DNA of 64,000 nucleotides from Patescibacteria group bacterium (GCA_041660885.1 JBAZVM010000003.1:38894-102893); one strand, 5' to 3'. Counted from the stretch's first letter, positions 8,096 through 36,907 are shown. Notes: generated from the sequence alone by a model not told the origin. Made by a program: numbers and translations.

Positions 8096-8098
8096 AAT

Positions 8099-10904: not shown

Positions 10905-12674
10905 ATGAAAAAAATAGTATTAACCCTGGCTTTATTTGCTGGGTTTGTTTTGTGTTTGCAGGCAAAAGCCGCGGATATCTATGTGGCCGATACCGGCAGC
11001 GATGCCACTGGAAACGGATCGCAGGATGCGCCTTATGCCACGGTAACGCAAGCTTTAAGTGTTATGGCCAGCGGCGATACCATCTATTGCCGGGGTACTA
11101 TTATCGACGACATTACCATACCGACCGCGGCTTCAGGCACGGCTTCGGCTTACTCGCAGATTACCAATTGGCCGGGATACGCGGCCACCATAGATGGCGG
11201 AGGAGCGGCTAATGATTATGTGATTAAAATTACAACTGGCACCAGTTATTTTAACATTAACGGATTAAATCTCACCAATGCCAATGACGGAGGCGTTGTG
11301 GGTAAAGGTACGGAAGCGGGTAGTAATATAATTGTTTCTAACAATACTATTTATAACTTGGTCAACACGGATGATCAATCATATATTTATTTAAAAAATA
11401 TTAGCAATGCTGAAGTAAGTAACAATAATATTTATGGAAACGGTTCAGATCTCTCATCGGTTGGCATTATTTTAGAAATTTGCCCAAATTCTACTGTGTC
11501 TTACAACCAAGTGCATGATTTTGCTCGTTTCGGTGTTGTAATTTCCACTAATACTTATGATTCCGTCGTCTCTAACAACTATATTTATAATATTGGCGGC
11601 AGCGACAGTGATTCTCGAGCGGGCATATATGTTACTGATACTTATAATTTAAAAATATACAATAATACCTTATATAATATTTATAATGAAACTAATGTCA
11701 TGCCTGCCATATACCTAAACGAGGTAGACCTTGATAGCCACGACATTACCATTATTAACAATATAATCAGTACTGCGAACATAGGTATATATAGCGATGG
11801 GGAATCCATAGTCGGTTCATCTTCGGATTATAATATTTTTTATAATTTAAATATTGTTGGTTATCTTGGCAGCGATCCTTATACAACGTTTACCGAATGG
11901 CAAACCAATGCCTATCAAGATGCGCATGGCATGGAAGCTGATCCATTATTCGTGTCCACTAATTCCGTAGCATACGATTTTCACTTGCAAGCATCTTCGC
12001 CGGCTATCGATGCCGGCCTTGATACCGATGAAGTAACGACTGATTATGATAATGAATCAAGGCCTTATAATATAACAGATATCGGCGCCGATGAATTGGC
12101 CGTGGTAGCTGCTCCGGAAAGTTTAGCCGCTACGACAGCGGTAAAAACAGCCGGTGTTTCTTGGCAAATGCCCGAAGGATACACAGCCACTTCTTACAAT
12201 ATTAAATTAAGCGCTAACAGCGATTTAAGCTCTGCTACGGAGTTATCCGGCGATTTAACTGCCATGGATTTAATCGATTTATCTTCTGCCTCGGTTTATT
12301 ATTTCGCGGTGCAAGCGGTTTATGAAACGGATTATGCTTCTTATTCTTCGGATTATTCGGAAACCTCCAGATTCGTTACACTTCCGGCTAAAGTTAAAAA
12401 AGTGGCCATACCCGCGAAATTTATCGGCACGAATCAAGCGAAGATAAAATGGAAAAAACAAAATAGGGTAACAGGATACCAAATAAAAGTGATGAATGCC
12501 AAAGGCAAAAAATTAAAAATGGTGAAAGTCAAAACTAATAAAAAATATAAAATAGTTAAAGGTTTGCAACCCGGCAGAACTTATAAAATTAAAGTCCGCG
12601 CCAGAAAAACTGTAAGCGGAGTAAATTACTGGGGAGCGTGGAGTAAAACAAAAAAATTTATTACTTTAAAATAA
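10905..12674 (+). CDS. Secreted right-handed beta-helix protein with two C-terminal FN3-like domains (paralog 1 of 7)
   Basis: Signal peptide; N-terminal motif ADIYVADTGSDATGNGS..PYATVTQAL..GDTIYCRGT; repeated NNTIYN/NNNIYG turns (PbH1-like); DFHLQASSPAIDAG..TDYDNESRPYNITDIGADE; then an FN3 domain and a Lys-rich FN3 ending WSKTKKFITLK. Confidence 0.8.
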   Translation: MKKIVLTLALFAGFVLCLQAKAADIYVADTGSDATGNGSQDAPYATVTQALSVMASGDTIYCRGTIIDDITIPTAASGTASAYSQITNWPGYAATIDGGGAANDYVIKITTGTSYFNINGLNLTNANDGGVVGKGTEAGSNIIVSNNTIYNLVNTDDQSYIYLKNISNAEVSNNNIYGNGSDLSSVGIILEICPNSTVSYNQVHDFARFGVVISTNTYDSVVSNNYIYNIGGSDSDSRAGIYVTDTYNLKIYNNTLYNIYNETNVMPAIYLNEVDLDSHDITIINNIISTANIGIYSDGESIVGSSSDYNIFYNLNIVGYLGSDPYTTFTEWQTNAYQDAHGMEADPLFVSTNSVAYDFHLQASSPAIDAGLDTDEVTTDYDNESRPYNITDIGADELAVVAAPESLAATTAVKTAGVSWQMPEGYTATSYNIKLSANSDLSSATELSGDLTAMDLIDLSSASVYYFAVQAVYETDYASYSSDYSETSRFVTLPAKVKKVAIPAKFIGTNQAKIKWKKQNRVTGYQIKVMNAKGKKLKMVKVKTNKKYKIVKGLQPGRTYKIKVRARKTVSGVNYWGAWSKTKKFITLK

Positions 12675-12700
12675 TACTTCGATAAACTCAGTATAAATAT

Positions 12701-14473
12701 ATGAAAAAAATATTTGCATCTTTGGTGATTTGTTCCGGCTTAATAATATGTTTGCCGGCTTTGGCCGCGGAATATTATGTAGATGGCGATTCAGGAGATG
12801 ATACAGCCGGATTGGGCACGGTCACCGCGCCATATAAAACTATTACCAAAGCCGTGGCTGTTATGTCTGGCGGAGATACGATTTATTGCCAAGGGACAAT
12901 TACCGACGGTTTAATTGATCTTGACGCCACCAAAGCCGGCACGGCCGACAGCTATACCACTATAACGGTTCGACCCGGTTATACCGCGACTATCAATGCT
13001 AATGGGAATGATTACGCCTTTATGGGTGGAAATGGCGCGCACTATGTTAAAATCAATGGTTTGAATATCACCAATGCTAATTTATTTGCCATCTACGCAT
13101 CCATAGGAGGAGCATCGGATTATTGGGAAATTACTAATAATAATATTTACGGTTTTACGGCAAATCCCGGCACCTATGTAATGATGTTCGGCAATTCCAG
13201 CCATTCTTTGATTTCCAACAATGATTTTGACGGTGAAGATGTTAATGTTTATGCCATTTATTACGGCCTGCTTAACGATGTTATTATTGAAAATAACAAA
13301 TTTCATAATTTTACGGATATTGTTCTGGCCGCGGACGGAGATGATTCCGATATGATTATTAGGAATAACTGGTTTTATAATAACGGCCACGGCGTAGGTT
13401 TTTTAAAAAGTTGTATTGTGTTGACTCGTGATAATGATATCCGTATTTATAATAATTCTTTTTATAATAATTACGACGCTACCAATAATATGTACGCCGT
13501 CATATTATGGGCGAATGATCCCGATGATATTTATGACATCACCTTTAAAAATAATATTGTTGATAAAGCTAATTATGTTTATTATTTTACCGCTGAAGTA
13601 GCCTATGGCATTAATATCGATAATAATGATATTTATGATGTTGATAAAGTTGGAAACATTGATGGCGTCACAGATTATAATTCCATGGCCGAATGGTCTG
13701 TTCTAGGTTACGATGAACATTCATACGGATTTGATCCGTCTTTCGTATCGATTGATGCGAGCAATATCGATTTGCATTTGCAGGAGACCTCTCTTCTTAT
13801 AGACGCCGGAGTGGATACGATCGACGCCATCACGGATTACGATAGCGAAACACGGCCTTATAATATTACGGACATTGGCGCGGATGAACGGCCGCTGGTA
13901 AACGCCTCACCCGTGTTTACAGAAGAATCGGCCTCTGCCACGAAAGTTGATTTATCTTGGTATGCTGATGAAAAATATCCAGTTACGAAATATATTGTGA
14001 AAAGAAGCACGGTAGAGGATTTCACCACGCAAAAGACCAAAGAATTTACAACGACCAGCGGAACTTTATCTAATTTTAAAGCGGCCAAGCAATATTATTA
14101 TTCTATCGCGGGAGTATATGAGACTGATTACGGATCATATTATTCCGATTATTCGGAAACGAGAAGTTTTATTACTTACCCAAAAAAGATAAAAGACGTA
14201 AAAGTACCCTCGGCTCATTTAAAACAGGACAGAGCTTATATTACATGGAAGAAACATGACAGATTAAACAGCTATGTTCTTAAGTTAACTAACAAAGATA
14301 ATCATAACCGAATTAAATATTATACTGTTTCTGGCAGCGAAAATTTTGAGACCATCCATAATCTAACCGCCAATACCAATTACGAAGCAAGAGTGCGGGG
14401 CAGAGTAAAATCCGGAAATACTTATCTCTTGGGCAAATGGAGCGCTATTAAAGAATTTAAAACTTTAGAATAA
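12701..14473 (+). CDS. Secreted beta-helix/FN3 protein (paralog 2 of 7)
   Basis: Same architecture and motifs as paralog 1 (AEYYVDGDSGDD..PYKTITKAV..GGDTIYCQGT; DLHLQ..IDAG..TDYDSETRPYNITDIGADE; basic C-terminal FN3). Confidence 0.8.
   Translation: MKKIFASLVICSGLIICLPALAAEYYVDGDSGDDTAGLGTVTAPYKTITKAVAVMSGGDTIYCQGTITDGLIDLDATKAGTADSYTTITVRPGYTATINANGNDYAFMGGNGAHYVKINGLNITNANLFAIYASIGGASDYWEITNNNIYGFTANPGTYVMMFGNSSHSLISNNDFDGEDVNVYAIYYGLLNDVIIENNKFHNFTDIVLAADGDDSDMIIRNNWFYNNGHGVGFLKSCIVLTRDNDIRIYNNSFYNNYDATNNMYAVILWANDPDDIYDITFKNNIVDKANYVYYFTAEVAYGINIDNNDIYDVDKVGNIDGVTDYNSMAEWSVLGYDEHSYGFDPSFVSIDASNIDLHLQETSLLIDAGVDTIDAITDYDSETRPYNITDIGADERPLVNASPVFTEESASATKVDLSWYADEKYPVTKYIVKRSTVEDFTTQKTKEFTTTSGTLSNFKAAKQYYYSIAGVYETDYGSYYSDYSETRSFITYPKKIKDVKVPSAHLKQDRAYITWKKHDRLNSYVLKLTNKDNHNRIKYYTVSGSENFETIHNLTANTNYEARVRGRVKSGNTYLLGKWSAIKEFKTLE
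13871..14470 (+). repeat. About 600-bp near-identical segment shared with 15611-16207 (3' third of paralogs 2 and 3)
   Basis: Direct nucleotide comparison shows only scattered substitutions. By eye, the encoded ~198 aa differ at about 8 positions, whereas the 5' two-thirds of the two genes are strongly diverged. Confidence 0.85.
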
Positions 14474-14479
14474 ATAAAT

Positions 14480-16210
14480 ATGAAAAAAATATTGTTTGGT
14501 TTCATCACCCTTTTTTCGTTAATAGCTATTCCTGCTTGGGCCGCGGATTATTATGTGGATGGTGATACCGGCAGCAACGCTACTGGTGATGGTTCGGAAA
14601 ACAATCCTTATCAAACAGTCAGCTATGCAATTACAATTATGGCCGGAGGAGATACGGTATATTGTCGCGGTACGGTAAATTCCGGTTTTTCTTTTGATGC
14701 CACCAAGAACGGAACTGCGGATCATTATACTACCGTTACCAATTGGCCGGGTTATGATTGTTTGATAGACGGACAGGGCATAAGCGGCGCCGGCACTAGC
14801 GGTTCGTATCAAAAAATTAACGGCTTAAGCATAAATAATGTCGAATCCATCGGTATTTTTGCCACCGGAGAATATATTGAAATAACCAATAACACTATTA
14901 CCGGTATGACCGGCGCAGTTATTAATCACGGCATTTACGGTGGGCCGGATAATTCCATAATTTCCGGTAATCATGTTTATGGATCAAGAGAATTGGACCA
15001 GTATGGAATAACTTTTTTGGGTTCTGATAATCTGGTAGTTGCCGATAATACAGTCCATGGATTTTCCGCCGTTGGAATAGTGCCCAATACCAGCGGGTCC
15101 GATATTACCATTAAAAATAACGTAGTTTATAACATTGGCAACTTTGCGTCTCATGGATATGCCGTATATGCTTCTTCGATAGATAATATTTGGATATACA
15201 ATAATACTTTTTTTGACATTAACAATACAGGCAATGATTCCTATAGTATAGGTATCGGCGACGATATTACCGATGCGATTATTAAAAATAATATTTTTTA
15301 TCAGACGGATGGCGGATATTACATCAGAACCGACAGTATGAACGAAGTGGAAACCGATTTTAATTTATTCTATGATGTTGATAAATTGGCCAACATGGAT
15401 AGCGTGGATTATACGGCACTAGCCGATTGGCAGGCGTCATCCATAACTCCGGATGCTCGTTCCTTTGTGGACGATCCAGCCCTTGTCAGCGTTACCACTG
15501 ACGTAGAGGATTTTCATTTGCAAGACGATTCACCGGCAATTGATGCCGGCTTTGACTTGGTTGAAGTGGATACGGATTATGATTCAGAATCTCGTCCATA
15601 CAATAAAACCGACATCGGCGCGGACGAACGGCCGCTGGTAAACGCCTCACCGGTTTTTACCGAAGAATCGGCTTTTGCCACGAAAGTTGATTTGTCTTGG
15701 TATGCTGATGAAAAATATCCGGTTACGAAATATATTGTGAAAAGAAGCACAGTAGAGGATTTCACCACGCAAAAGACCAAAGAATTTACAGCCACCAGCG
15801 GCACTTTATCTAATTTCAAAGCGGCCAAGCAATATTATTACGCCATTGCCGGAGTATACGAAACCGATTATGGAGCTTACTACTCCGATTATTCGGAAAC
15901 CAAAAGTTTTATTACTTATCCAAAAAAGATAAAAAACGTAAAAGTACCTTCGGCTCATTTAAAACAGGACAGGGCATATATCACCTGGAAGAAACATGAC
16001 AGATTAAACAGCTATGTTCTCAAGTTAACTAACAAAGATAATCATAACCGTATCAAATATTTTACTGTTTCTGGCAGCGAAAATTTTGAAACTATTCATA
16101 ATCTAACCGCCAATACCAATTACGAAGCAAGAGTGCGGGGTAGAGTAAAATCAGGAAATACTTATCTCTTGGGCAAATGGAGCACTATTAAAGAATTTAA
16201 AACTTTATAA
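14480..16210 (+). CDS. Secreted beta-helix/FN3 protein (paralog 3 of 7)
   Basis: ADYYVDGDTGSNATGDGS..PYQTVSYAI..GGDTVYCRGT; beta-helix turns; DFHLQDDSPAIDAG..TDYDSESRPYNKTDIGADE; the C-terminal ~200 aa are nearly identical to paralog 2. Confidence 0.8.
   Translation: MKKILFGFITLFSLIAIPAWAADYYVDGDTGSNATGDGSENNPYQTVSYAITIMAGGDTVYCRGTVNSGFSFDATKNGTADHYTTVTNWPGYDCLIDGQGISGAGTSGSYQKINGLSINNVESIGIFATGEYIEITNNTITGMTGAVINHGIYGGPDNSIISGNHVYGSRELDQYGITFLGSDNLVVADNTVHGFSAVGIVPNTSGSDITIKNNVVYNIGNFASHGYAVYASSIDNIWIYNNTFFDINNTGNDSYSIGIGDDITDAIIKNNIFYQTDGGYYIRTDSMNEVETDFNLFYDVDKLANMDSVDYTALADWQASSITPDARSFVDDPALVSVTTDVEDFHLQDDSPAIDAGFDLVEVDTDYDSESRPYNKTDIGADERPLVNASPVFTEESAFATKVDLSWYADEKYPVTKYIVKRSTVEDFTTQKTKEFTATSGTLSNFKAAKQYYYAIAGVYETDYGAYYSDYSETKSFITYPKKIKNVKVPSAHLKQDRAYITWKKHDRLNSYVLKLTNKDNHNRIKYFTVSGSENFETIHNLTANTNYEARVRGRVKSGNTYLLGKWSTIKEFKTL
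15611..16207 (+). repeat. Second copy of the about 600-bp near-identical segment (partner of 13871-14470)
   Basis: See 13871-14470. Confidence 0.85.
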
Positions 16211-16219
16211 TAAATAAAT

Positions 16220-18010
16220 ATGAAAAAAATATTATTGTCTTTCTTATTGGGAACAGGATTAATTTTATGTTTACCGGTTTTTGCCGCGGATGTTTATGTT
16301 TCTGAAACCGGCAGCGATGCCACAGGTTTAGGCTCAGAAGCGTCTCCGTTTGCCACTGTTACCCAAGCCTTGGGCGCGATAACCGGCGGAGATACTATTT
16401 ATTGCCAGGGCAATATAACAGACAGCATCACCCTGACGGCCGCACATTCCGGAACTGCCGGTTCATACACTACAATTACCTCTTGGCCAGGTTATGACGC
16501 GGTTTTAAACGGCAATGGAGCTGATACGGTTTTTTTCATCGATAATGATACGCAATACATAAAAATCGATGATTTAGCTTTAACAAATGCTGTCACGAAC
16601 GGCATTCAAACTAATGGAATCGCGGATAATATTATAATATCAAATAATCTAATTTACGGATTAACCGGCGGGTCAGCCGCTAGGGCGCTAGTTTTGAGCG
16701 TAACCAATTCCCAGATAACAGATAACGATTTAAATGGAGGGGCAACCATGGGAGACGGTTTGTATCTGATGTCTTGTGATAATTTAACCATTGCAAAGAA
16801 TAAAATTCATGATTATTTAAGCAACGGCATGTTTTTCGATGTTGTTTCGCAAAATTCTACCGTGGTGAACAACTGGATATATAATATCGGCGGCGGCATG
16901 TCGGCTTACAGCGCCGGTGTTTTTGTGGGAGACTCGCATGATATTCAAATTTTAAATAACTCTTTTTATAACATTTACGATTTGGATTATCCGGCCAGCG
17001 GAATCAGCGTGGCCACCAGCAGCTATGATTGTTATAACATCACTGTAAAAAATAATATTATTGTCGTTGCCAATTATGGATTTAGCTCGGATTACAATTA
17101 TACCGGGTTAGAAGTAGATCATAATCTTTATAATCAGACTAATCTTATAGGTTCTGTAGCTGGCGCCGAATTCAGTACATTAGCGGAATGGCAAGCGGGC
17201 ACTATTTACGACGATAATTCCGTCAGCGGTGATGCCAATTTTCAAATGCTCGTCGCCGGCAATGAAAATCTGCATATTTGGCAGACTTCAGCCGCCATTG
17301 ACGCCGGTGAGAATCTAGCGGAAGTGATTACGGATTTTGACGGAGAGGATCGTCCTTATAATATTACCGATATCGGGGCGGATGAGGCACCTCTGGTTGC
17401 TACGCCCGATAGCTTAAGCTCTAATCCCAAAGTAAGAGAAACCACTCTTTCTTGGCTTACGGATTCGAATTATCCAGTCACTGGTTATAATATAGCATAT
17501 AATGTAAATGAAGACGTTTTTAACGGGACATTCATTACTGGCAACCAAAACGCGGTAGTTACTATAACCGGTTTAAAGCCGGCAAAGAAATATTATGCCA
17601 AGGTTCAGGCTTATTACGAAACGGCTTATGATACTTATCTTTCGGATTATTCAGATACTTTAACATTCGGCACCAAACCGGCCCGTGTAGAAAAGACAAA
17701 GAATTTAATTACGGTTCATAATTATTCTCAATGGCGCTGGAAAAAGCAAAGCCGGGTATTTAATTATGTTATTAAATTGATGGACGAAAATGGTGAAGTG
17801 ATTCAAACAATTCAAGTAAAAAAGAAAAAGAAGTTTGTGAATAATGCCAACAATAAGTTCGTAAAATATTCTATAAGCGGATTAGAATCCGGAAAAACTT
17901 ACATGATAAAAATTCGCGCGAAAAAGAAAGTAAACGGGGAGTGGCTGAAGGGCAAATGGAGCATCACCAAGACATTTAGCACTATGGCAGACTCTGGGCC
18001 CGAATTATAA
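16220..18010 (+). CDS. Secreted beta-helix/FN3 protein (paralog 4 of 7)
   Basis: ADVYVSETGSDATGLGS..PFATVTQAL..GGDTIYCQGN; NLHIWQTSAAIDAG..TDFDGEDRPYNITDIGADE; basic C-terminal FN3 (KTYMIKIRAKKK..WLKGKWSITKTFST). Confidence 0.8.
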   Translation: MKKILLSFLLGTGLILCLPVFAADVYVSETGSDATGLGSEASPFATVTQALGAITGGDTIYCQGNITDSITLTAAHSGTAGSYTTITSWPGYDAVLNGNGADTVFFIDNDTQYIKIDDLALTNAVTNGIQTNGIADNIIISNNLIYGLTGGSAARALVLSVTNSQITDNDLNGGATMGDGLYLMSCDNLTIAKNKIHDYLSNGMFFDVVSQNSTVVNNWIYNIGGGMSAYSAGVFVGDSHDIQILNNSFYNIYDLDYPASGISVATSSYDCYNITVKNNIIVVANYGFSSDYNYTGLEVDHNLYNQTNLIGSVAGAEFSTLAEWQAGTIYDDNSVSGDANFQMLVAGNENLHIWQTSAAIDAGENLAEVITDFDGEDRPYNITDIGADEAPLVATPDSLSSNPKVRETTLSWLTDSNYPVTGYNIAYNVNEDVFNGTFITGNQNAVVTITGLKPAKKYYAKVQAYYETAYDTYLSDYSDTLTFGTKPARVEKTKNLITVHNYSQWRWKKQSRVFNYVIKLMDENGEVIQTIQVKKKKKFVNNANNKFVKYSISGLESGKTYMIKIRAKKKVNGEWLKGKWSITKTFSTMADSGPEL

Positions 18011-18024
18011 TAATTTATTAATAT

Positions 18025-19797: not shown

Positions 19798-19810
19798 TTT
19801 TAATAATAAT

Positions 19811-21565: not shown

Positions 21566-21568
21566 CTT

Positions 21569-21678: not shown

Positions 21679-21784
21679 TGCGTCCGTGGGGCAGTTCTAC
21701 GAAGACTTTGATCAGGTGGAAGAGGGGGGGGGTGCCGGAAATTACTAAAGTCTAAGTAAAAATTTCACTTCTTTGCCTGCATTG

Positions 21785-23251: not shown

Positions 23252-23260
23252 AGAATACGT

Positions 23261-23653
23261 TTAATTGTCAGACGGGGAGTGCCGGACGTTATTAAAATCC
23301 AAGTAAACTTTTACTTCTTTATTCACTTTGCTCCACGTAATCTGCAAATCGCTTCCTTTGAAAGCGCGAGAGAGCTGCCGGCCGATGCTGACGGCTCTTT
23401 TCGGTTCGGTAAAATGAAAGATGATTTTATTTTCGCCTTTTTCGGTTTTACCGCGCTCGTTTTCACGGGTATGATTATCGATTAAATTAAATATTTCGTT
23501 TTGATTGGGTATGTTTTGGTAATTCGTTAAAATCAGTTCATTGGGTAAAATATTTTCCGGAAAATTTTTAGTTTTTTCCTGGCGGCCTCGCACCATGGAT
23601 TCTTTTTCCCTGATGTCTTTGCGCGTGAGCTTAGCTGGCTTGAAAAATGGCAT
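23261..23653 (-). CDS. Hypothetical 130-aa basic protein, upstream partner of the radical-SAM-like gene
   Basis: ORF ends 9 nt before the downstream minus-strand gene. Its last ~37 codons (..KRAVSIGRQLSRAFKGSDLQITWSKVNKEVKVYLDF..) are the sequence duplicated at 21569-21678. Confidence 0.6.
   Translation of the reverse strand: MPFFKPAKLTRKDIREKESMVRGRQEKTKNFPENILPNELILTNYQNIPNQNEIFNLIDNHTRENERGKTEKGENKIIFHFTEPKRAVSIGRQLSRAFKGSDLQITWSKVNKEVKVYLDFNNVRHSPSDN
23292..23401 (-). repeat. 110-bp direct repeat copy 2 (inside the 3' end of the 130-aa gene)
   Basis: See 21569-21678. Confidence 0.85.
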
Positions 23654-23678
23654 ACAAATAGAAGTTAAATAATTAATG

Positions 23679-23687
23679 TGCTATAAT
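23679..23687 (+). promoter_or_regulatory. Extended -10 promoter element (TGcTATAAT) for paralog 7
   Basis: tgtgcTATAAT at 23677-23687, 34 nt upstream of the ATG at 23721. It is the same 11-mer as at 10485-10495. Confidence 0.4.
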
Positions 23688-23720
23688 TTTAGCATAAAAT
23701 AAACTTAAATACTAATTACT

Positions 23721-25439
23721 ATGAAAAGAATTATTGTATTTACGGGGATTCTCATTATCTCTCTATTTTTAGTTAAAACCGGCTATGCCGCCGAGTATTA
23801 CATTGACGCCGCATCAGGCAACGATGCCAATGCCGGATCAGAGAGCGCCCCTTGGCAGAGTTTAAGCAAAATCAATTCTATCACCGGAGGAGATACGGTT
23901 TATTTAAAAGGCGATTTTGTTATTACCAGCCAAATTGATATTACTTCAGCTGTTTCCGGAACTTCATCTGATTATACAAGTATTAACATATGGCCCGGCT
24001 ATAACGCTCTCATTGATATAGCGCCAGATATATATAATCTAAACATACAAGCCAGTTATTTGGATATAAACAATTTGCAATTTCATAATAACGGCACATT
24101 GGCTGCCAATGGAAACGCAATAACATTGGCCGATGGCATTCAATATATTATAATTGACCATTGCAATTTCAGCGATGCGCAAAACGCCATTTATGGAGAT
24201 GGAACAGTCGGTGGTGGAATTTCCGAAGTGGAAATATCAGCCAATTGGTTTACCGGCAACTATAATGGAATAAAGTTAGACTATACTTCCAATGCCGATG
24301 TTTACAAAAATTATTTTTACAATAATAGCAATTATGGAGCCGATACTACTTATACTGATAATGTTTTAATAAACAATAATATTTTTTATTATAATAGGCA
24401 TGGAATTATTGAAGGGGGCAGTGCGGATTTGAAAATTTTGAACAATACTTTTTATCATAATACTTCTTATGGCATCGGGACTGAAATAACCACCAGCGTT
24501 TTAATTAAAAATAATATATTTGATAGCAATGATTATGCCTTGCTAAATATCCTGGGCACTAGTTTTGTAACCGATAATAATTTATTCAATAACAATAATT
24601 TCATCGGCGGCAGCGGTTTTCCTATTATAGATTATTCCGATTTATCTTCTTGGCAGGCGCTGGGTTTTGACGCCTCTTCTTTGGAAGGCGATCCCGTTTT
24701 TACATCCATTGCCAGCGGAACCGAAGATTTTAATTTATTAGCCGGTTCCCCGGCCATAGATAGCGGTTCGGATTTATCCGCTTATTTTTCGAGCGATTAT
24801 GCAAATTCGCCGCGGCCGCAAGGAAGCGCCTTTGATATCGGCGCATACGAGTATACTTCTCCGCCAACAAATTTAACTGCGGTTAATACTCAGGCAAAAG
24901 ATTTGACTTTGACATGGGATGCTTCTTGCACAAGTTGCACATATTCCTTGGCTTATTCTACGGTGGCAGATTTTTCCGCCAATGTTAATACAGTGGAAAA
25001 TATTTTAACAACCACGCAATTGGTTGACGGTTTAAAATCAGCCAAACAATATTATTGGAAAATAAAATCTAATAATGGTATTTATGATTCAGAATATACT
25101 TCCGTGTTAACCGCGCCAACAAAACCAAGCCAAGTGAAACAACTCCATATTAATAACATTACTAATAACGAGGCTGATTCAGAATGGGCAAAACAAAAGC
25201 GAGTAAAGCATTATATTGTGGCGTTAATGGACAGTAACCGCCATGTTCTCAGGAGAATAACTGTGCAAATCAGCCAATCTTATTTAACGGGCTCGGCTCG
25301 AAAAGTAAAAAAGACCATTACTCATCTTTCAGCTGATAAGGAATACAAGATAAAAGTGCGCGCAAAACGAAAAATGAATGGAACTTGGTATAAAGGAAAA
25401 TGGAGTGATGTAAAAACATTTGATACTTTAAGCAATTAA
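23721..25439 (+). CDS. Secreted beta-helix/FN3 protein (paralog 7 of 7, most divergent)
   Basis: AEYYIDAASGNDANAGSE..PWQSLSKI..GGDTVYLKGD; NN(I/T)FY beta-helix turns; DFNLLAGSPAIDSG...FDIGAYE; basic FN3 ending WSDVKTFDTLSN. Confidence 0.8.
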   Translation: MKRIIVFTGILIISLFLVKTGYAAEYYIDAASGNDANAGSESAPWQSLSKINSITGGDTVYLKGDFVITSQIDITSAVSGTSSDYTSINIWPGYNALIDIAPDIYNLNIQASYLDINNLQFHNNGTLAANGNAITLADGIQYIIIDHCNFSDAQNAIYGDGTVGGGISEVEISANWFTGNYNGIKLDYTSNADVYKNYFYNNSNYGADTTYTDNVLINNNIFYYNRHGIIEGGSADLKILNNTFYHNTSYGIGTEITTSVLIKNNIFDSNDYALLNILGTSFVTDNNLFNNNNFIGGSGFPIIDYSDLSSWQALGFDASSLEGDPVFTSIASGTEDFNLLAGSPAIDSGSDLSAYFSSDYANSPRPQGSAFDIGAYEYTSPPTNLTAVNTQAKDLTLTWDASCTSCTYSLAYSTVADFSANVNTVENILTTTQLVDGLKSAKQYYWKIKSNNGIYDSEYTSVLTAPTKPSQVKQLHINNITNNEADSEWAKQKRVKHYIVALMDSNRHVLRRITVQISQSYLTGSARKVKKTITHLSADKEYKIKVRAKRKMNGTWYKGKWSDVKTFDTLSN

Positions 25440-25440
25440 A

Positions 25441-26778
25441 ATGAAAAAAATATTTTTAGTATTTGGATTAGCCATAGGATTAATTCTACCGCTTGCCGGC
25501 CGCGCGGTTGGCGAGGATATTTGGGTGATAGAAACAGGAGGAGAGGGGACTTTCGTTTCTCTGCTTGGAACAAATTATAACGTAACCACAAAAACAACAG
25601 ACGAAATAAAGTTGGGTATTTCTTCAGACGTGGAATTATTAATATATCCGGGAGGCTTGTTGCCGATAACCCAAGCGCAAGACGCTGATTTGCAGGCCGC
25701 TATTTTGGATTATGTTAATAATGGCGGCAATTATTTCGGCAGCTGCGGGGGTTCTATTCCCGGCGCGCAACAATTAACTTATGATTATGGAGTTTTAGAT
25801 ATGATTGGATTAGTTCAAGTGGATGCTATAGATTATTTAGATTGGTTTACCACTGTTTCTTATACAGATGGTTTTGTTTTTAACGATAATACGGAAATAA
25901 ACGGAGAATATGCCAGCGGCACGCACTGGCTAACTTATAGCGGCGGCCCCGCTTTTGATATAGTGTCCGGTTATGAGAATGATATTGAAGTGCTCGCTAC
26001 TTACGCGGCCAATTTTAATAGCGCTCAGACCAGCCATTATGAAGTGCAAGGAAAAGCGGCTATTGTTTCCACAGCTTATGGATTAGGAAAAGTAATTTTA
26101 TGCGCGCCGCATCCGGAAAGCGACAGCAGTACGCAATTTATTTTTGACAACATGGTCACTTGGTTGCTTACGGCAACAGATTACACGCCGGAGCAAACGC
26201 AAAACGTACAAGTGAAAAAAATTAAATCAAATCAAGTAAAAGTAAAATGGGATACGCAAGCCGATACCTCGCAATACCAGATAAAAGTGAGAAACAAAAA
26301 GGGGAAGGTGGTTTTTTCCGGTAAGACTACTAATGATTATATTTTCGTCAATCCATTAAAAAAGGGAAAGAATTATTCCGTTAAAGTGCGTGCCATTGGT
26401 TTTTATGAACAGCCCGGGCCTTGGTCGGAAAAAATTTCATTCAAAACTAAATCTTGGCGTTATTATCATAACATTCCCTATTCTTTTAATTTGAAATTTT
26501 CTAAAGAGTGGAAAGGTTTAAAAGTAAAAAAGAGTGTCCAGGATTACGGAACGGTTTTACATTTTAGATTGCCCACAACTTCCGAGTATTATCCGCATGG
26601 TTATGCCACCATGTTTTCTATTATCGTTTACACTAAAGATCAATGGGCCGGAGAAGATTCTCTAGCCGAGAGTGATGATTATGTATTTTCGTGGTCTCAT
26701 GTGCATGATGCGCCGATTGGTCTAACTGCTCGTATGCAGGAAACGGAAAGTATCATAGATACTTTTAAACTTGATTGA
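25441..26778 (+). CDS. Secreted protein: class-I-GATase-like (BPL_N-type) domain, basic FN3 module, and an unknown C-terminal domain
   Basis: Signal peptide; LLIYPGG...NNGGNYFGSCGGS...GKVILCAPHPE resembles the BPL_N/GATase1-like fold; an internal FN3 (QVKKIKSNQVKVKWD..YQIKVRNKKGK..YSVKVRAIG..WSEKISFKTK). The start overlaps the stop region of paralog 7. Confidence 0.6.
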   Translation: MKKIFLVFGLAIGLILPLAGRAVGEDIWVIETGGEGTFVSLLGTNYNVTTKTTDEIKLGISSDVELLIYPGGLLPITQAQDADLQAAILDYVNNGGNYFGSCGGSIPGAQQLTYDYGVLDMIGLVQVDAIDYLDWFTTVSYTDGFVFNDNTEINGEYASGTHWLTYSGGPAFDIVSGYENDIEVLATYAANFNSAQTSHYEVQGKAAIVSTAYGLGKVILCAPHPESDSSTQFIFDNMVTWLLTATDYTPEQTQNVQVKKIKSNQVKVKWDTQADTSQYQIKVRNKKGKVVFSGKTTNDYIFVNPLKKGKNYSVKVRAIGFYEQPGPWSEKISFKTKSWRYYHNIPYSFNLKFSKEWKGLKVKKSVQDYGTVLHFRLPTTSEYYPHGYATMFSIIVYTKDQWAGEDSLAESDDYVFSWSHVHDAPIGLTARMQETESIIDTFKLD

Positions 26779-26779
26779 T

Positions 26780-28636
26780 TTATTTCGTTTTGAAAGTTTT
26801 ATAATCGGACCAAACAACAGAGTAACCTTTTTTATTAATGGCGCGCACTCTTACCTTGTAATTTGTTTGCGTTTTTAAGCCTTTTATTAATTTAGTATTG
26901 GCCGTGAATTTCTTTTTGGTGCGCACTCTTTTTACCAGAGAATCATCGCTTTTTCTAATTTCAAGCTGGTATCCTTTCTTAGATTTTTTAATCCTTTTAA
27001 AGGTGACAGTAGCGCGAGTGGTGCCGCGGCTGGCAAGCCTTACTCTTTTTACTGGTTGATTTATATAAGCAATCGTTCCGGAATTTAAGCTGAACATTTC
27101 TTCGGTGTTATCTGTTACGCTGAGTTCTCCGACAAGCGTGTCTACCTGGCCATCCGGATTCTGCACGGTTATATTCAAGTATCCGGCGTTCATGCCTTTG
27201 GGCGCGGTGCAAGTTAAGGAGTATCCATCGCTTGCGACCGTCGCGTTTAAGCAAGGAAAATCACCAATCATAACTTTTGCCCCATTTTCTATATAGAATC
27301 CGCTTACGGTTAAAACGTTATCGACATCATTCACAATAGTTTCCGGTGAAACGCTGCTTAAAGTTGGCGCGTAATCGGTGGTGACGGTAAGCGCATTTTT
27401 TAGAACCGTGGATTGAGAACCGTTGACTACTTTAATGTTATAAAGGCCCGCGGTTAAGTAGGGTAGAGTAATTTCTATTTGATTGTTGCCTATGGCCGCC
27501 ACTTCTGAAGCCGCAGTTTCCACGCCGTTTAATACAAAATAGACTAGCGATGATGAAGTGAAGTTATTGCCATAAAGATCAATAAATCCGCCTGATTGCA
27601 CTACATTCGGTATGGGGGCGGCGTTATTAATATCAACATCGGCGTATGCGGCAGCCGCGGAAGGGCAATCTCCATTTAACATAGGGAAAATTACGTATTT
27701 CCCCTTTGGAAGCAAAACGGTATTATCCGCGGTACCGGACGCAACGACTTTATTGGTGCCATAAGAATTAATCCAGAAACCGGCGGCGTCGGTTAGAGAG
27801 ATGGATACGGTTTGCGATTTTAACAACTCAAAAGTGCCGCCGTTTAACTGAATGCCCCAATCTCCGCAAGATTGTTCGGCGGTGATGTTGGTAGAAAAAT
27901 CCGGATCAGCTTCCGAAGTCCCTTCATTAGTTATGGCCACATCATCGACAAACCAGCCGCGAAAAGCGTTATAACGGTAGTCTCTTGAATCAAAATAGAA
28001 ACGAATATAAACAGTACCGCCGGCGTAAGAATCCAAACTAAAAGTATGGTCTACCCACTGGCCCGCTTGGCCTAATCCGCCGGAAGTATATGGTTTAAAT
28101 GATTCGCCGTTTACATCGTTGATAGGGTTAATGCTGTCTAATTCTGTAAAATTTACGCCATCGGTGGAAGCTTGCACATACATCATGTCGTATGTATTCA
28201 CATCTACGCCTTCGATTTCCCACCATGTGGCAAATTCCAAAGTAGCATTGGTTTGCGCGGAAAGATCAATAGCCGGAGACATCAAGTAGCCGGTGTTGGC
28301 CTCGTTTGATAGCCCGCCGTTTTTAGCGGTTTGATTAGCCGTGTTATAGGCGCCGATATAAGTGCCGGTGGCATCCTCGCCATACCACCAAGCAGTGGAA
28401 CCGGAGTAAGCGGAAGGCAAAGAGCCGTCGTCTGGCAGTGAAATTAAATCGGGATTCAACGCAGAACTGACGCTGATATTTTCCGGATTGGTGATTTGGT
28501 GCCAGAATCCCGTGGATGTCCACCCGTTGGCGCCGGTTTCCATGTCGTCAAAAAAGATATTTTCCGCTTTAGCTGGTAATGCCTGGAACAAGCCAAAGCA
28601 AAGGGCTAAAGCCGAAATTAACAATGTTTTTTTCAT
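26780..28636 (-). CDS. Secreted protein with an N-terminal jelly-roll (MAM/LamG-like) domain, IPT/TIG-like repeats and a C-terminal basic FN3 module
   Basis: Signal peptide; ENIFFDDMETGANGWTSTGFWH..., ATLEFATWWEIEG; two Ig-like repeats (..LTVSGFYIENGAKVMIGDFPC..); C-terminus YQLEIRKSD..YKVRVRAINKKG..WSDYKTFKTK. It is convergent with the 25441 gene, with a 1-nt gap. Confidence 0.7.
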   Translation of the reverse strand: MKKTLLISALALCFGLFQALPAKAENIFFDDMETGANGWTSTGFWHQITNPENISVSSALNPDLISLPDDGSLPSAYSGSTAWWYGEDATGTYIGAYNTANQTAKNGGLSNEANTGYLMSPAIDLSAQTNATLEFATWWEIEGVDVNTYDMMYVQASTDGVNFTELDSINPINDVNGESFKPYTSGGLGQAGQWVDHTFSLDSYAGGTVYIRFYFDSRDYRYNAFRGWFVDDVAITNEGTSEADPDFSTNITAEQSCGDWGIQLNGGTFELLKSQTVSISLTDAAGFWINSYGTNKVVASGTADNTVLLPKGKYVIFPMLNGDCPSAAAAYADVDINNAAPIPNVVQSGGFIDLYGNNFTSSSLVYFVLNGVETAASEVAAIGNNQIEITLPYLTAGLYNIKVVNGSQSTVLKNALTVTTDYAPTLSSVSPETIVNDVDNVLTVSGFYIENGAKVMIGDFPCLNATVASDGYSLTCTAPKGMNAGYLNITVQNPDGQVDTLVGELSVTDNTEEMFSLNSGTIAYINQPVKRVRLASRGTTRATVTFKRIKKSKKGYQLEIRKSDDSLVKRVRTKKKFTANTKLIKGLKTQTNYKVRVRAINKKGYSVVWSDYKTFKTK

Positions 28637-28767
28637 AATTTTTGGTTATTTTTTATTAGATATCAAAATATATATTTATTATATCATATTATTGCCATTA
28701 AAAAAATTTGTTGTTCAACCGGCTCTGTAGTATAATATATTTAATATAATTAACTTGGAGGAAAAAT

Positions 28768-29931
28768 ATGTCATTGTTAAAAAACAAAATTGGCTTGAAA
28801 TTGGGAGTCCTAACGCTTTTTTGCGTTATGGGATTTTCCGCCCTGCCGGCTTTGGCCGCGGAAGTGGAAATAGTTAATGGTACGCTGCAGTATCCAGATG
28901 CTTCAGCCGCTTCAGGCGTGCACGTGGAAATGCACACTTCCAATGGTGATATTATGGTAACAGGCACAACAGATGTCAGCGGAAATTTTAGTTTTGTTTA
29001 CGAAAGCGCTACGCTCGATGGTAAAACTTTAACAGTGGAATTAACTCCCCCGACCGGTTATAACCGTCCCACCACGAATTATCCGTATAGCTTCACTTAT
29101 ACTGCAGGGGACTCAGTTAGAGCAATAGGCACATGGACATTAGTGACTGCGCCCAAAACCATTAATGTGACGGTAGTGAACGATCTAGGCGCCGCAGTTG
29201 ACGCTGATGTAGTGGCGTATTCTTTAAGCAGCACTCTGGGTTCAGATGTAGGCGGCAGCACCGGAGCGGACGGCTTATATAGCATATCTATAACCGGCGG
29301 TGATTGGTATGTAAAAGCCGATGCCAATTTAAGCACTACCAATGCCGATTCTTACCCATGGATGTTCGCGGGAGCGGCGCAGAAAGTATCTTTCGCGCAA
29401 GACAGTTCCGCGGAAAGCACAGACTTAACTTTTACCGTCACAACCACGCAATCTCGCGTGCAAGCTCGATTCTTGGATTCTTCCGGCGCGATTTTAACCG
29501 GCAATGATTTTGATGCCGATATTACTTTTATCAGATCAGACGGCATTTCTACCAGAAGAAAGGTAAATGCTTCCGGCATTGTTGATGTATATTTGCTGCC
29601 CGGCATATATCGGGTTTGGCCGGATCATCCGCAAATAACCAGTACGCAAACTTTTTTAGATGAAAATGTTGTGTTTATCGTGGCGGATAATGAGAATAAA
29701 AATTTAGGAGACATTCAAGCAATCAATAAAGGCTCGCATATAACCGGTAAAGTTATCAATCAAGATAATGACGTAGTTTCCGGAGCGCAGTTACTTTTAA
29801 CGAGAGAGGGTTCACCGGAAAGGCAATACGGTTCCACTGACAGTTACGGAGAATATTCTTTTTTAGTGGGTCCCGGCAATTACACTATAGTTCTTGGTAC
29901 TTCCGGCTTGGTAACCGAGTATACTTTATAA
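28768..29931 (+). CDS. Secreted Ig/carboxypeptidase-regulatory-like repeat protein, N-terminal part of a split gene
   Basis: RBS GGAGG 7 nt upstream; signal peptide; repeated ~90-aa beta-sandwich units (GTV.D..G.P..GA.V). It ends at TAA 29929-29931, in the same frame as the next ORF. Confidence 0.7.
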   Translation: MSLLKNKIGLKLGVLTLFCVMGFSALPALAAEVEIVNGTLQYPDASAASGVHVEMHTSNGDIMVTGTTDVSGNFSFVYESATLDGKTLTVELTPPTGYNRPTTNYPYSFTYTAGDSVRAIGTWTLVTAPKTINVTVVNDLGAAVDADVVAYSLSSTLGSDVGGSTGADGLYSISITGGDWYVKADANLSTTNADSYPWMFAGAAQKVSFAQDSSAESTDLTFTVTTTQSRVQARFLDSSGAILTGNDFDADITFIRSDGISTRRKVNASGIVDVYLLPGIYRVWPDHPQITSTQTFLDENVVFIVADNENKNLGDIQAINKGSHITGKVINQDNDVVSGAQLLLTREGSPERQYGSTDSYGEYSFLVGPGNYTIVLGTSGLVTEYTL

Positions 29932-29949
29932 AGTCCCGCGACCGCATCC

Positions 29950-32118
29950 GTGGCCTCTAATAATGAAACGATAGACGATTTAAATTTAGAAGTGTTTAAA
30001 AATAATATTACCATACAAGGAACGGTAAACCATAACAGCGCGGCCGTGGAGAATTTCTATGGCACCATTGTCGTACAAAGCGCCAGCGCTACTGATACTT
30101 ATTTTACCGCCATAGATCCGGATGGCACCTATGAAATAAATTTACCCACCAGCGCGATTTCCGCGGAAGAGCTTGAAGTCAGCATGATTACTCAGCCGGG
30201 CGCGAATTTATATTTGCCGAGTTCGGAAAAGAAAACAGTCACCGTAGACGCGGGCACTTACGAAAAAAATCTTGCCTTATCCGATGAAGACGCGGTGATC
30301 AGCGGCAGTATCACCAATTTATCTGGCGGGGCTATAGCCGATTTGGGCACAAATGCCACTATCGTAGCCATGAACACAAAAGGTTCAGTGGAAACTGCAA
30401 TTGTCGGAAGCGATGAAAACTACAGCATGACAGTCGCTCCGGGCGATTGGACATTGGGAGTAAAGCTGGAGAATGAAGATTTAGCCACTATTGTGGCAGC
30501 TTCGGGAAATTATTTGCAAACAACAGCTGCTTCGGGAAACGAAGCTAATGTAGATATCCCCGTAGCGGAAAAACAGGCCACTATAACCGGTACAGTTACC
30601 GATAACGAAGGCCATGGGGTGGCAGCTGCTCCTTTAGTGCTCACTAATTTATCGGCCTTACAAGCTTCTGATGACGAAGTAAATCCCGCGGAAGTTGTTT
30701 ATATTGCCGCGCAAACGGATGAAAATGGCGATTATAGCGCTTCAGTACCTGTTGGGACTTTTACCATAAACGCCGGAACTAATCCTAATGTGGAAAGTTT
30801 AATGGAACCGGTCTCGGTGACGGCCACAGTGGCCGCAGCCGGTACGGCTGACGCGGATTTATCTTATCGCACGGCCGATAAAACTTTATCCGGTGAAGTA
30901 AGCGTGGGCACCGGCACTATTATGGATGGCAAAGTGATAGCGTATTCCAATAACGGCGGATATGCCGAAGCTGATATTGATAGTAATAACGGCTATTCTT
31001 TGGCCTTGGTGGCCGGAGAATGGGAAGTCATTGCTTCCGGCTTGGTCAATAATAAATTATATGCCAGTTCTGTTAACACGGTGAACATTGAAAATGCTTC
31101 AAATTCTTTAGATTTAACCATGATGAGCACGGGCCAAGATGTGCCTGGTGTTTCTTCCATAACCAAAGGTGGAGACGAATTAATAGCGATCGGCAATGAT
31201 GCCGGAGTTGCTGCCATGATTCAGCCTTATGGCGCGGTGTTCTCCGGAGATGTATCCGTGGAATTATCTCCGGTGGCTGAAGTATCTCCGACATCCAATG
31301 GTTTGCAAGCCAGTTTATCGTACGAATTGCGCGTGACATCCGATGATAAAGAAGTCACCCAGCTTAATATTCCGGCTACAATTGTCATGCCCATTGCCAC
31401 AGACGGGGAAATCAGCGGCGTGGCCGTTGATAGCAGTAAATTGGCCGCGCAATATTGGAGCCCGGAAGAAGAAATGTGGCAGCCCGATGGCGTCACCGGA
31501 GTGGTGGATACGGAAAATAATCGCGTGATCATCCAAACGGATCATCTTTCCCGCTTTTCCGTAACCGGTCCGGAAAGTTCCGCGCCGGCTAAAATTAGAA
31601 ATGTGCGGGTGCCGGATAAATACAGAAAAGCCAGGCAAGTGCGAGTACGTTGGCAAGCCGATGCCAAAGCGGATAGATATGTTTTGCAATTGCGCACCAA
31701 AAAAGGCGTGAAAGTGAAATATTTTTCCGTGAACAAGCACAGCCGTATAATCAGGAAGAAATATTTAGTGGCCAATAAAGCGTATAAAGCGCGCGTCAGA
31801 GGCATAAACAGCCTTGGCGAAACCGGCGCTTGGTCTGATTACAAAAATTTCCGTACCAAACCGGGCAAAGTGCGCGATGTCAGCTTCAACCAAAGTAATT
31901 CTATGGTCACCTTTCTTGCCGGACGAGGCGCTCATTTAACCTACCAAATAAAATTAATGGACGAAGACGGCAAAAAACTGCGCTTAATCAAGGCGACCAC
32001 AACCAAGAAAGTTATCAGCAGCTTAGAAACCGGCACCACTTATAAAATAAAAGTAAGAGCCAAATACGATAAAGACAATATCGGCGTTTGGAGCGATCAA
32101 CTTACTATTACTAAGTAA
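29950..32118 (+). CDS. Ig/carboxypeptidase-regulatory-like repeat protein with two C-terminal basic FN3 modules (C-terminal part of a split gene)
   Basis: No signal peptide or RBS, and the ORF-track start is a GTG. It lies in the same frame as 28768-29931. The C-terminus carries two tandem FN3 modules (..YVLQLRTKKG..YKARVRGIN..WSDYKNFRTKPG.. and ..YQIKLMDEDGKK..YKIKVRAKY..WSDQLTITK). Confidence 0.65.
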   Translation: MASNNETIDDLNLEVFKNNITIQGTVNHNSAAVENFYGTIVVQSASATDTYFTAIDPDGTYEINLPTSAISAEELEVSMITQPGANLYLPSSEKKTVTVDAGTYEKNLALSDEDAVISGSITNLSGGAIADLGTNATIVAMNTKGSVETAIVGSDENYSMTVAPGDWTLGVKLENEDLATIVAASGNYLQTTAASGNEANVDIPVAEKQATITGTVTDNEGHGVAAAPLVLTNLSALQASDDEVNPAEVVYIAAQTDENGDYSASVPVGTFTINAGTNPNVESLMEPVSVTATVAAAGTADADLSYRTADKTLSGEVSVGTGTIMDGKVIAYSNNGGYAEADIDSNNGYSLALVAGEWEVIASGLVNNKLYASSVNTVNIENASNSLDLTMMSTGQDVPGVSSITKGGDELIAIGNDAGVAAMIQPYGAVFSGDVSVELSPVAEVSPTSNGLQASLSYELRVTSDDKEVTQLNIPATIVMPIATDGEISGVAVDSSKLAAQYWSPEEEMWQPDGVTGVVDTENNRVIIQTDHLSRFSVTGPESSAPAKIRNVRVPDKYRKARQVRVRWQADAKADRYVLQLRTKKGVKVKYFSVNKHSRIIRKKYLVANKAYKARVRGINSLGETGAWSDYKNFRTKPGKVRDVSFNQSNSMVTFLAGRGAHLTYQIKLMDEDGKKLRLIKATTTKKVISSLETGTTYKIKVRAKYDKDNIGVWSDQLTITK

Positions 32119-36744: not shown

Positions 36745-36907
36745 GGGTCATTTCCAACCACGTTCCTAGACCGGGTGTCCCGGCCACGCCACCGTCCAGT
36801 GACAGTTCGGAATACAGGTTTTTGTAAATACACAATATCACATCCTTTTTATTTGTCAAAAATACGAATTTGCCATATTATTATTAAACAATTTAAAGAA
36901 AGAAGTT

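Follow-up and report, generated by a model that had tools for sequence, protein, structure and literature searches.

Lysine-rich, mostly terminal fibronectin type III domains of exported Patescibacteria proteins as candidate surface-retention modules

Eleven predicted proteins encoded in a 64,000-nucleotide stretch of a contig from a Patescibacteria group bacterium (GCA_041660885.1, JBAZVM010000003.1:38894-102893), hereafter called the window, carry a lysine-rich module of 87-105 amino acids. It occurs in 12 copies, two of which have an insertion of 8-10 amino acids. The module represents neither a new fold nor a new family but a subfamily of the fibronectin type III (FN3) domain with specialised charge; it is found on proteins with export signals, usually as their last domain. 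Judged from these sequence features, there is about an even chance that it serves as a non-covalent electrostatic surface-retention (anchor) domain of this Patescibacteria lineage. The use of the domain is conserved and apparently undescribed; the FN3 fold and the principle of cationic retention are already familiar. The copies in the window, with positions counted from its first nucleotide, are as follows.

12384-12671, plus strand: basic FN3, C-terminus of beta-helix paralog 1 (open reading frame (ORF) 10905-12674), net charge +30
14180-14470, plus strand: basic FN3, C-terminus of beta-helix paralog 2 (ORF 12701-14473), net +11
15917-16207, plus strand: basic FN3, C-terminus of beta-helix paralog 3 (ORF 14480-16210), net +13, near-identical to the copy of paralog 2
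17693-18007, plus strand: basic FN3 with a 10-amino-acid insertion, C-terminus of beta-helix paralog 4 (ORF 16220-18010), net +16
19510-19794, plus strand: basic FN3, C-terminus of beta-helix paralog 5 (ORF 18025-19797; protein identical to P0154 of a Patescibacteria metagenome-assembled genome), net +22
21278-21562, plus strand: basic FN3, C-terminus of beta-helix paralog 6 (ORF 19811-21565), net +14
25128-25436, plus strand: basic FN3 with insertion, C-terminus of beta-helix paralog 7 (ORF 23721-25439), net +14
26182-26460, plus strand: basic FN3, internal in a BPL_N/GATase-like protein (ORF 25441-26778), net +14
26783-27064, minus strand: basic FN3, C-terminus of a MAM/IPT protein with choice-of-anchor J (ORF 26780-28636), net +26
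31582-31860, plus strand: basic FN3, first of a C-terminal tandem pair in an Ig-repeat (CarboxypepD_reg) protein (ORF 29950-32118), net +23
31855-32115, plus strand: basic FN3, second of the tandem pair, extreme C-terminus of the Ig-repeat protein, net +9
60684-60959, minus strand: basic FN3 directly after the signal peptide of a Calx-beta/PEBP protein (ORF 59880-61028), net +18

A profile hidden Markov model (HMM) built from the 12 copies matched exactly these modules in the six-frame translation of the window (73-113 bits) and, with the ORF translations, located every copy where the first-pass annotation of the window had placed it. The only other matches were seven weak ones (8-24 bits), which correspond to acidic FN3s of the beta-helix paralogs. 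The consensus proposed in that annotation was reproduced by the 12-copy alignment, in which Y32, L61, Y67, R72, W86 and S87 are invariant. The module had been called FN3-like; the resemblance stands, but the word understates it, as the module is a bona fide FN3 domain. All 12 isolated modules matched PF00041 at E <= 0.01 (best E = 7.4e-10), and against the family cut-off of 25 bits copy 1 alone scored 37.9 bits and the full proteins 29-51 bits. The AlphaFold2 model of the copy at 12384-12671, made with the 12-row alignment, is a seven-stranded beta-sandwich (predicted local distance difference test score, pLDDT, 95.9) with strands at residues 18-22, 31-38, 43-49, 55-59, 66-77, 80-83 and 90-93, and its best Foldseek matches in the PDB were canonical FN3 domains (TM score about 0.8). 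The criterion for FN3 was this seven-stranded sandwich together with Trp in strand B, Tyr in strand C, Leu in the EF loop and Tyr in strand F; the signature positions W23, Y32, L61 and Y67 are hydrophobic in 100 % of the copies.

A sequence profile search of the PDB with the module returned titin, fibronectin, NCAM and similar proteins, including the III-13 region of the heparin-binding fibronectin fragment III-12-14 (PDB 1fnh, 3r8q) at E of about 1e-7. When the 12-copy profile was run with HMMER against 1.84 billion representative sequences, 51,632 proteins were matched at E < 1e-3. The top 150 were giant multi-FN3 proteins, ranked by summed score, and the profile is thus that of a generic FN3. 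The module alignments contain no conserved motif beyond the generic FN3 core residues. Since both fold and profile are generic and no anchor family was matched (see below), what sets the module apart is its charge and its placement, not its fold.

The module had been described as far more basic than the passenger domains, and the calculated charges agree: the 12 copies have net charges of +9 to +30 and isoelectric points (pI) of 10.0-11.4, whereas the remainder of each host protein has a net charge of -26 to -49 and a pI of 4.05-4.45. Outside the module, the most positive stretch of 95 amino acids in the tagged proteins has a charge of -1 to -6, and in the window's extracytoplasmic proteins the mean for stretches without a module is -8.1 ± 4.8. 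The pattern goes far beyond what chance would give. In each of the seven beta-helix paralogs the basic FN3 is directly preceded by a further FN3, which is acidic (net -1 to -7).

12123-12386, plus strand: acidic FN3 directly before the basic FN3 of paralog 1, net -7
13913-14182, 15665-15922, 17420-17680, 19237-19506, 20999-21274 and 24864-25115: equivalent acidic FN3s of the other six paralogs

Because these acidic FN3s are encoded in the same genes, neither the fold nor codon bias forces the lysine richness of the module. The proteome of the window as a whole is split by charge: presumably cytoplasmic proteins, i.e. those without an export signal, have pI values of 8.5-10, and proteins or ectodomains with signal peptides have pI values of 4-5.5, so that the basic module is an exception among the exported sequence.

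When the alignment was mapped onto the model strands, lysine or arginine was present in at least 40 % of the sequences at more than 25 exposed columns. They correspond to the alternate residues that point outward in strands A, B, C, C', E, F and G, together with the BC loop, and cover both sheets. The most conserved of them are K70 (97 %), R72 (88 %), K45 (84 %), K35 (78 %), K3 (75 %) and K90 (69 %). In the model this distribution suggests a diffuse coat of positive charge, densest along a stripe of the C-C'-F-G sheet. Such a surface would be better suited to hold an extended polyanion than to act as a discrete ligand pocket.

The 11 tagged ORFs encode seven tandem right-handed beta-helix paralogs, the BPL_N/GATase-like protein, the MAM/IPT protein, the Ig-repeat protein and the Calx-beta/PEBP protein. 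In ten of them the predicted protein begins with a classical signal peptide of the ordinary Sec type (MKK, a hydrophobic stretch and A-x-A). By a simple hydropathy rule, signal-peptide-like starts were found in 10 of the 11 tagged ORFs, compared with 12 of the 37 other ORFs (Fisher p = 0.001). The earlier claim that all hosts are secreted proteins is correct for these ten; it does not hold as such for the Ig-repeat ORF 29950-32118, which has no signal peptide of its own and is the 3' part of a split gene.

28768-32118, plus strand: split Ig-repeat surface protein gene, with an in-frame TAA at 29929-29931

This single TAA separates the ORF with the signal peptide (28768-29931) from the in-frame ORF with the tag. 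The read-through product is collinear with the single ORF of a related contig (43 % identity over 1,039 alignment columns), in which a Glu stands opposite the TAA, and the orthologs are single ORFs of about 1,020 amino acids (contig L003, 17342-20404; contig L013, 7657-10722). The TAA may represent a nonsense mutation or mark a recent pseudogene, or it may be a sequencing error.

The two departures from C-terminal placement in the window differ in kind. In the Calx-beta/PEBP protein the basic FN3 is followed by an acidic linker, DDEIEEEE. In the BPL_N/GATase-like protein it is followed by about 105 residues (amino acids 341-445) which matched no family and are absent from the orthologs in contigs L003 (345 amino acids) and L004 (430 amino acids), both of which end with the basic module. 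Among the beta-helix genes, paralogs 2 (12701-14473) and 3 (14480-16210) are 43-63 % identical over the first approximately 1,200 nucleotides and 84-95 % identical over the last approximately 570 nucleotides, the region of the acidic and basic FN3 pair. The confinement of the high identity to the tail indicates a recent gene-conversion or recombination tract.

The first-pass annotation had proposed a search with a module HMM to see whether the module is restricted to signal-peptide proteins and biased to their termini. All ORFs of contigs around beta-helix homologs were scanned in this way, which gave 38 tagged proteins from at least seven Patescibacteria assemblies (the window and contigs L003, L004, L005, L007, L012 and L013). 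Signal peptides are present in 37 of the 38, the sole exception being the split Ig-repeat gene. The basic FN3 lies within 7 residues of the C-terminus in 35 of the proteins, right after the signal peptide in two (the Calx-beta/PEBP protein of the window and a 230-amino-acid protein of L012) and internally in one (the BPL_N protein of the window). The positive charge is kept at about 30 % sequence identity: the 42 basic modules of the census have net charges of +5 to +45 (median +22), a range disjoint from that of its 19 acidic FN3s (-15 to -1), and wherever acidic FN3s occur they lie before the basic ones. Restriction to exported proteins, terminal bias and conservation of charge were thus all borne out. 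Among the further passengers in the related loci are an S8 subtilase (L007) with two basic FN3s at its end, and three proteins for which Pfam gave no match save FN3-type domains in two of them. In contig L011, which lies downstream of the window, a further 9.5 kb of sequence contained no more copies.

Homologs of beta-helix paralog 5 from other Patescibacteria assemblies (28-64 % identity) carry, without exception, a lysine-rich FN3 at the end, and the short forms P0170 and P0171 keep this terminal FN3 and lack the acidic one. The lysine-rich FN3 is absent from the retrieved non-Patescibacteria homologs (P0172-P0179 and P0181-P0187). A neighbour-joining tree built from 50 FN3 domains groups 31 of the 32 basic copies in a single clade and the acidic FN3s in a separate one; the remaining basic copy, a weak 2.3-bit match from L007, lies beside the acidic clade. 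Mean identity is 30 % among basic domains, 34 % among acidic domains and 18 % between the two. Over the 29 columns that are rarely charged, the corresponding values are 46, 49 and 37 %, and the higher identity among basic domains than between the two groups means that the basic modules share ancestry beyond mere composition, by a modest margin. Within the basic clade, copies from orthologous host proteins pair across genomes, and different architectures are interleaved. Such a pattern is consistent with an old module that moved by shuffling onto several passengers, after which each combination was inherited vertically. An origin from phage cell-wall-binding domains is unsupported, a tblastn search of phage genomes with one module having given no match.

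The position of the module can be compared with what follows the homologous passenger domains elsewhere. Two of the beta-helix paralogs matched the NCBIfam model choice_anch_Q above its cut-off of 25 bits, one with 26.4 bits and the other, paralog 1, with the higher score:

11970-12095, plus strand: choice-of-anchor Q (NF041518) in paralog 1, closing the beta-helix core and preceding the FN3 pair, 30.9 bits (cut-off 25)

The MAM/IPT protein matched choice_anch_J (33.5 bits, cut-off 30) and the CoaZ (choice-of-anchor Z) repeat (38.2 bits, cut-off 30). 'Choice-of-anchor' denotes surface proteins in which the anchor varies with the lineage, for example LPXTG, PEP-CTERM or the sorting domain of the type IX secretion system (T9SS) (bioRxiv 10.1101/2023.03.06.531300). 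What follows the same beta-helix/choice-of-anchor Q core differs between homologs. In P0187 it is a T9SS type A sorting domain (25.6 bits, cut-off 23); P0178, P0179 and P0183 have a dockerin (PF00404), P0185 has a terminal repeat that looks dockerin-like by eye, P0182 has RTX repeats, and P0180 (Kerfeldbacteria) has a C-terminal transmembrane helix followed by RIRKR. In P0186 the core is followed by LPEP, a hydrophobic helix and RRGQ, a PEP-CTERM-like tail that scores 14.9 bits, below the cut-off of 16. Several other retrieved homologs end right after the core. In the lineage of the window the slot after the core is filled by an acidic and a basic FN3, or by the basic FN3 alone. As the homologous cores of other phyla lead into known anchors or secretion tags, the place taken by the cationic FN3 is an anchor slot.

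No other anchor was recognised in the tagged proteins. The first-pass annotation had not been able to assign the module to a known anchor, and Pfam and NCBIfam searches of the 11 proteins and 12 modules agree: SLH (PF00395), LysM (PF01476), SLAP (PF03217), GW/SH3_8 (PF13457), CWB1/CWB2 and WxL gave no match at E <= 0.01, neither LPXTG nor PEP-CTERM was matched, and the T9SS sorting-domain models TIGR04183, TIGR04131 and PF18962 gave no match at threshold, the nearest being a marginal match of one of the 12 modules to PF18962 (Por_Secre_tail, E = 0.0069). The C-termini of the tagged proteins contain no transmembrane tail, LPXTG or signal of the PEP-CTERM/PGF-CTERM type. In tagged proteins only 0-7 residues follow the last FN3 strand (e.g. 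...KFITLK, ...FKTLE, ...TFRTAN), and a crude hydropathy count gave zero or one hydrophobic segment per protein.

Retention would proceed in few steps. The N-terminal signal peptide, evident in the sequence, directs the protein to Sec export. Outside the cell the terminal FN3 would tether an acidic catalytic or adhesive passenger, often with the acidic FN3 as spacer. The lysines and arginines on exposed positions of both beta-sheets would bind a polyanionic layer electrostatically; candidate layers are wall glycopolymers, a surface layer (S-layer), membrane lipid head groups or bound extracellular DNA (eDNA). The acidic parts would be repelled and would face outward. If charge density and not a terminal motif drives binding, the domain would be usable at the C-terminus, directly after the signal peptide, internally or in tandem. 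The N-terminal, internal and tandem copies therefore fit adhesion by charge, and they argue against a processed C-terminal sorting signal. Of the shared function that had been suggested for the module, the envelope-anchoring part gains from the signal peptides, the terminal bias, the conservation of charge and the choice-of-anchor context, but the variant in which the module acts as an export tag does not.

By analogy, the closest functional counterparts would be the basic non-covalent anchors of Gram-positive bacteria, SLAP and GW, and the closest polyanion binders in structure the heparin-binding FN3s of fibronectin and tenascin-C. SLAP (PF03217), found in S-layer and S-layer-associated proteins of Lactobacillus and in PrtB, resembles the module in being C-terminal, of high pI and carried by diverse exported enzymes; it is non-covalent, replaces LPXTG and occurs on the subtilase-type cell-envelope protease PrtB (PMC10535647). 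It differs in its fold, which is perhaps SH3-like, in phylum and in sequence, PF03217 not being matched by the module. Moreover, binding has been demonstrated for SLAP-type regions, whereas that of the module is predicted from sequence. GW modules (SH3_8, PF13457), present in InlB and Ami of Listeria and in staphylococcal autolysins, are likewise basic and re-associate secreted proteins non-covalently with the anionic wall or lipoteichoic acid, tandem repeats strengthening the binding; they have an SH3b fold, not FN3, and share no sequence match with the module. A catalogue of the wall-binding domains of monoderms does not include FN3 as such a domain (2018 review, PMC5817068).

The heparin-binding FN3s of animals (fibronectin III-13 of HepII and tenascin-C III-5, which binds heparin (PMC3630135)) share the Pfam family, the fold and basic residues with the module. 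However, they are eukaryotic and internal and have a localised cationic patch, whereas the module has charge on both sheets and is terminal on many unrelated exoproteins. T9SS sorting domains (TIGR04183, PF18962), PEP-CTERM and LPXTG occupy the same slot after choice-of-anchor Q/J passengers; unlike them, the module needs no strict C-terminal position, transmembrane helix or sortase-type motif and has no evident cognate machinery. In the stalks of the Gram-positive cell-envelope proteases ScpA and PrtP (PMC10535647), FN3-type domains follow a secreted S8 protease as in the subtilase of L007, but there they are spacers or substrate-binding domains followed by a wall-spanning region and LPXTG or SLAP, whereas here the module itself is the terminal polycationic element. 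In the literature searched, no account of a basic FN3 serving as an anchor was found for Patescibacteria or monoderms, and in an S-layer preprint, which pairs beta-helix lattice domains with diverse and partly novel anchoring domains, the cationic FN3 is not among the latter.

Several observations weigh against a retention role. Genes for teichoic acids or an S-layer were not seen in the window, and FN3 domains are common inert spacers in bacterial exoenzymes. From sequence, attachment to the producer's own envelope and attachment to a host cell are not distinguishable. The sample of the census was not unbiased, as the loci had been reached through beta-helix homologs that were already tagged, and the separation of the acidic and basic clades could be partly compositional. 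The window also encodes secreted proteins without the tag, a GH114 protein (58470-59351) and a PMP-repeat protein (61484-63025). A conserved secreted protein with FG-GAP and polysaccharide deacetylase domains occurs in the same neighbourhoods in L003, L004, L012 and L013 (L013, 4407-5993), and none of its four copies matched the module HMM; in the L012 and L013 copies the last 100 residues have a net charge of -4 to -6. As these proteins are untagged, tagging is selective.

Outside the Patescibacteria, signal-peptide proteins with a terminal lysine-rich FN3 were found in Clostridia (Anaeromassilibacillus, Acutalibacteraceae) and in the metagenome contig L010.

L001, 7379-10243: Clostridia/L010 group of loci with basic FN3s (proteins P0001-P0003 for the group)
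L002, 4494-5771 and 7388-9142: the same group
L010, 222-3977: the same group

The passengers of these proteins are a phage-tail-lysozyme-like enzyme, a D-Ala-D-Ala (S11) carboxypeptidase, a BspA-type leucine-rich repeat protein and a transglutaminase-like protein. Scans of genomes and metagenomes with alignments of the module gave two Clostridia loci, the window's own contig and one more. The Clostridia copies score only 30-48 bits against the module HMM, at which level membership of the same subfamily is not demonstrable. The lysozyme-like enzyme and the carboxypeptidase act on peptidoglycan, which is consistent with wall association in monoderms, and basic FN3 tags may be more widespread than the Patescibacteria. 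A wider proposal, that the polycationic FN3 is an unrecognised class of general, sortase-independent surface-display anchor for one specific anionic envelope polymer, possibly in some Clostridia too, is put forward only tentatively, the balance of probability being somewhat against it.

The principal alternative to retention on the producing cell, which is possible but unlikely, is that the cationic FN3 directs released enzymes and adhesins to the anionic surface of a host (lipopolysaccharide, teichoic acids or S-layer). The expected charge features would be identical, and with no other anchor the secreted proteins would be free to diffuse. The pectate-lyase-like beta-helices, the S8 protease and the adhesin-like MAM/IPT domains could act on a host envelope, and FN3-bearing surface proteins are proposed candidates for host interaction in Patescibacteria (PMC13059738). 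However, the order of passenger, acidic spacer and C-terminal basic domain is that of a wall-proximal anchor of monoderm proteins, not of a distal adhesive tip, and the logic of choice-of-anchor proteins favours retention on the producer. The Clostridia counterparts, moreover, are free-living and have basic FN3s on enzymes for their own wall.

It is rather less likely that the module is passive, an ordinary stalk in which the lysines offset an acidic passenger for solubility or reflect AT-rich codon bias. FN3 is a generic linker, as the breadth of the HMMER result illustrates, and the GC content of the module DNA is slightly below that of the window (0.356 compared with 0.387), with lysine preferred to arginine (210:72). 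A spacer would be expected between domains, yet the basic FN3 is the last domain in 35 of the 38 census proteins, its charge is kept at low sequence identity, and the FN3s next to it in the same genes are acidic. Nor does the charge of the tag follow that of the passenger (r = -0.25, p = 0.13; per residue r = -0.04), and 33 of the 38 module-bearing proteins are still net negative overall. In the absence of such scaling simple charge balancing is unlikely, and compensation of an acidic passenger was rejected as an explanation.

A sorting signal for a dedicated secretion or attachment machinery, T9SS-like and possibly removed after export, is very improbable. The T9SS sorting domain is a beta-sandwich comparable in size and fold to the module; the strong C-terminal bias, the position of the T9SS domain in the beta-helix homolog P0187, the marginal Por_Secre_tail match and a VirD4/TrwB-like ATPase that adjoins the arrays in four genomes would all be in its favour. 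The strict extreme-C-terminal placement that a T9SS sorting domain requires is, however, broken by the two N-terminal copies (window and L012), the internal copy and the tandem copies; there is no conserved motif past the FN3 core, the signal peptides are ordinary Sec ones throughout, and the sorting-domain models were not matched at threshold. No T9SS machinery genes (PorK/L/M/N, SprA, PorU/V) were found among the window genes (64 kb plus flanks of one contig). Patescibacteria are generally regarded as lacking an outer membrane, which T9SS needs. The suggestion in the first-pass annotation of an export tag analogous to T9SS C-terminal domains is thus a poor fit. Binding of extracellular nucleic acids, for nucleotide scavenging from eDNA or RNA or for attachment to a biofilm matrix, is the least probable explanation: the diffuse positive charge on both faces and the dependence of Patescibacteria on scavenged building blocks would suit it, but the module has no nucleic-acid-binding fold or motif, the passengers are neither nucleases nor uptake components, the purine synthesis genes purL and purM are encoded in the window, and nothing specific favours DNA above other polyanions.

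Patescibacteria are mostly uncultured surface-attached symbionts in which the display of envelope proteins is poorly understood, and a shared tag would permit the surface-retained proteome to be predicted from sequence. If the module does anchor proteins to the producing cell, the surface proteins that uncultured episymbionts display would be predictable with the HMM and a charge filter, and the tag would be one borne modularly by enzymes, adhesins and candidate coat proteins. FN3 would then join the non-covalent anchoring domains, and the tag would offer a portable handle for localisation and display experiments and extend the 'choice-of-anchor' idea to a lineage whose examined tagged proteins show no recognised anchor. 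If it binds host surfaces instead, it would mark candidate host-interaction effectors.

A second type of basic segment was seen in the secreted protein at 57400-58467 (plus strand), which has no Pfam match. Directly after its signal peptide, at amino acids approximately 36-130, lies a non-FN3 basic stretch with a net charge of +19, and the remainder of the protein is acidic. The AlphaFold2 model made without an alignment was unusable (pLDDT 33.8). From its composition and position the stretch may represent a further kind of cationic segment for surface retention.

The beta-helix array is interrupted by an ORF of 488 amino acids in the reverse orientation (21785-23251, minus strand), which contains the motif CSHGCPFC (CX3CX2C) and has a weak match to Radical_SAM. 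It was considered as a tag-processing enzyme and rejected, since it is absent from the syntenic loci L003 and L004. The VirD4/TrwB-like ATPase gene (DUF87/TrwB_AAD_bind, with DUF8128 in relatives) adjoins beta-helix arrays in four assemblies.

Window, 6419-9613, plus strand: VirD4/TrwB-like ATPase
L004, 6719-8908: VirD4/TrwB-like ATPase
L005, 16955-19153: VirD4/TrwB-like ATPase
L013, 1797-3980: VirD4/TrwB-like ATPase

Upstream of the copy in the window lies a separate ORF of 558 amino acids without family matches. Further downstream, the region at approximately 36900-44050 has a low GC content (27-35 %) and contains an HpaII-type restriction-modification pair.

38098-38979: C5 methylase of the HpaII-type pair
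38972-40057: endonuclease of the HpaII-type pair

The pair is flanked by RhuM-family and RhuM-Fic genes, and from its composition and gene content the region looks like a mobile defence island.

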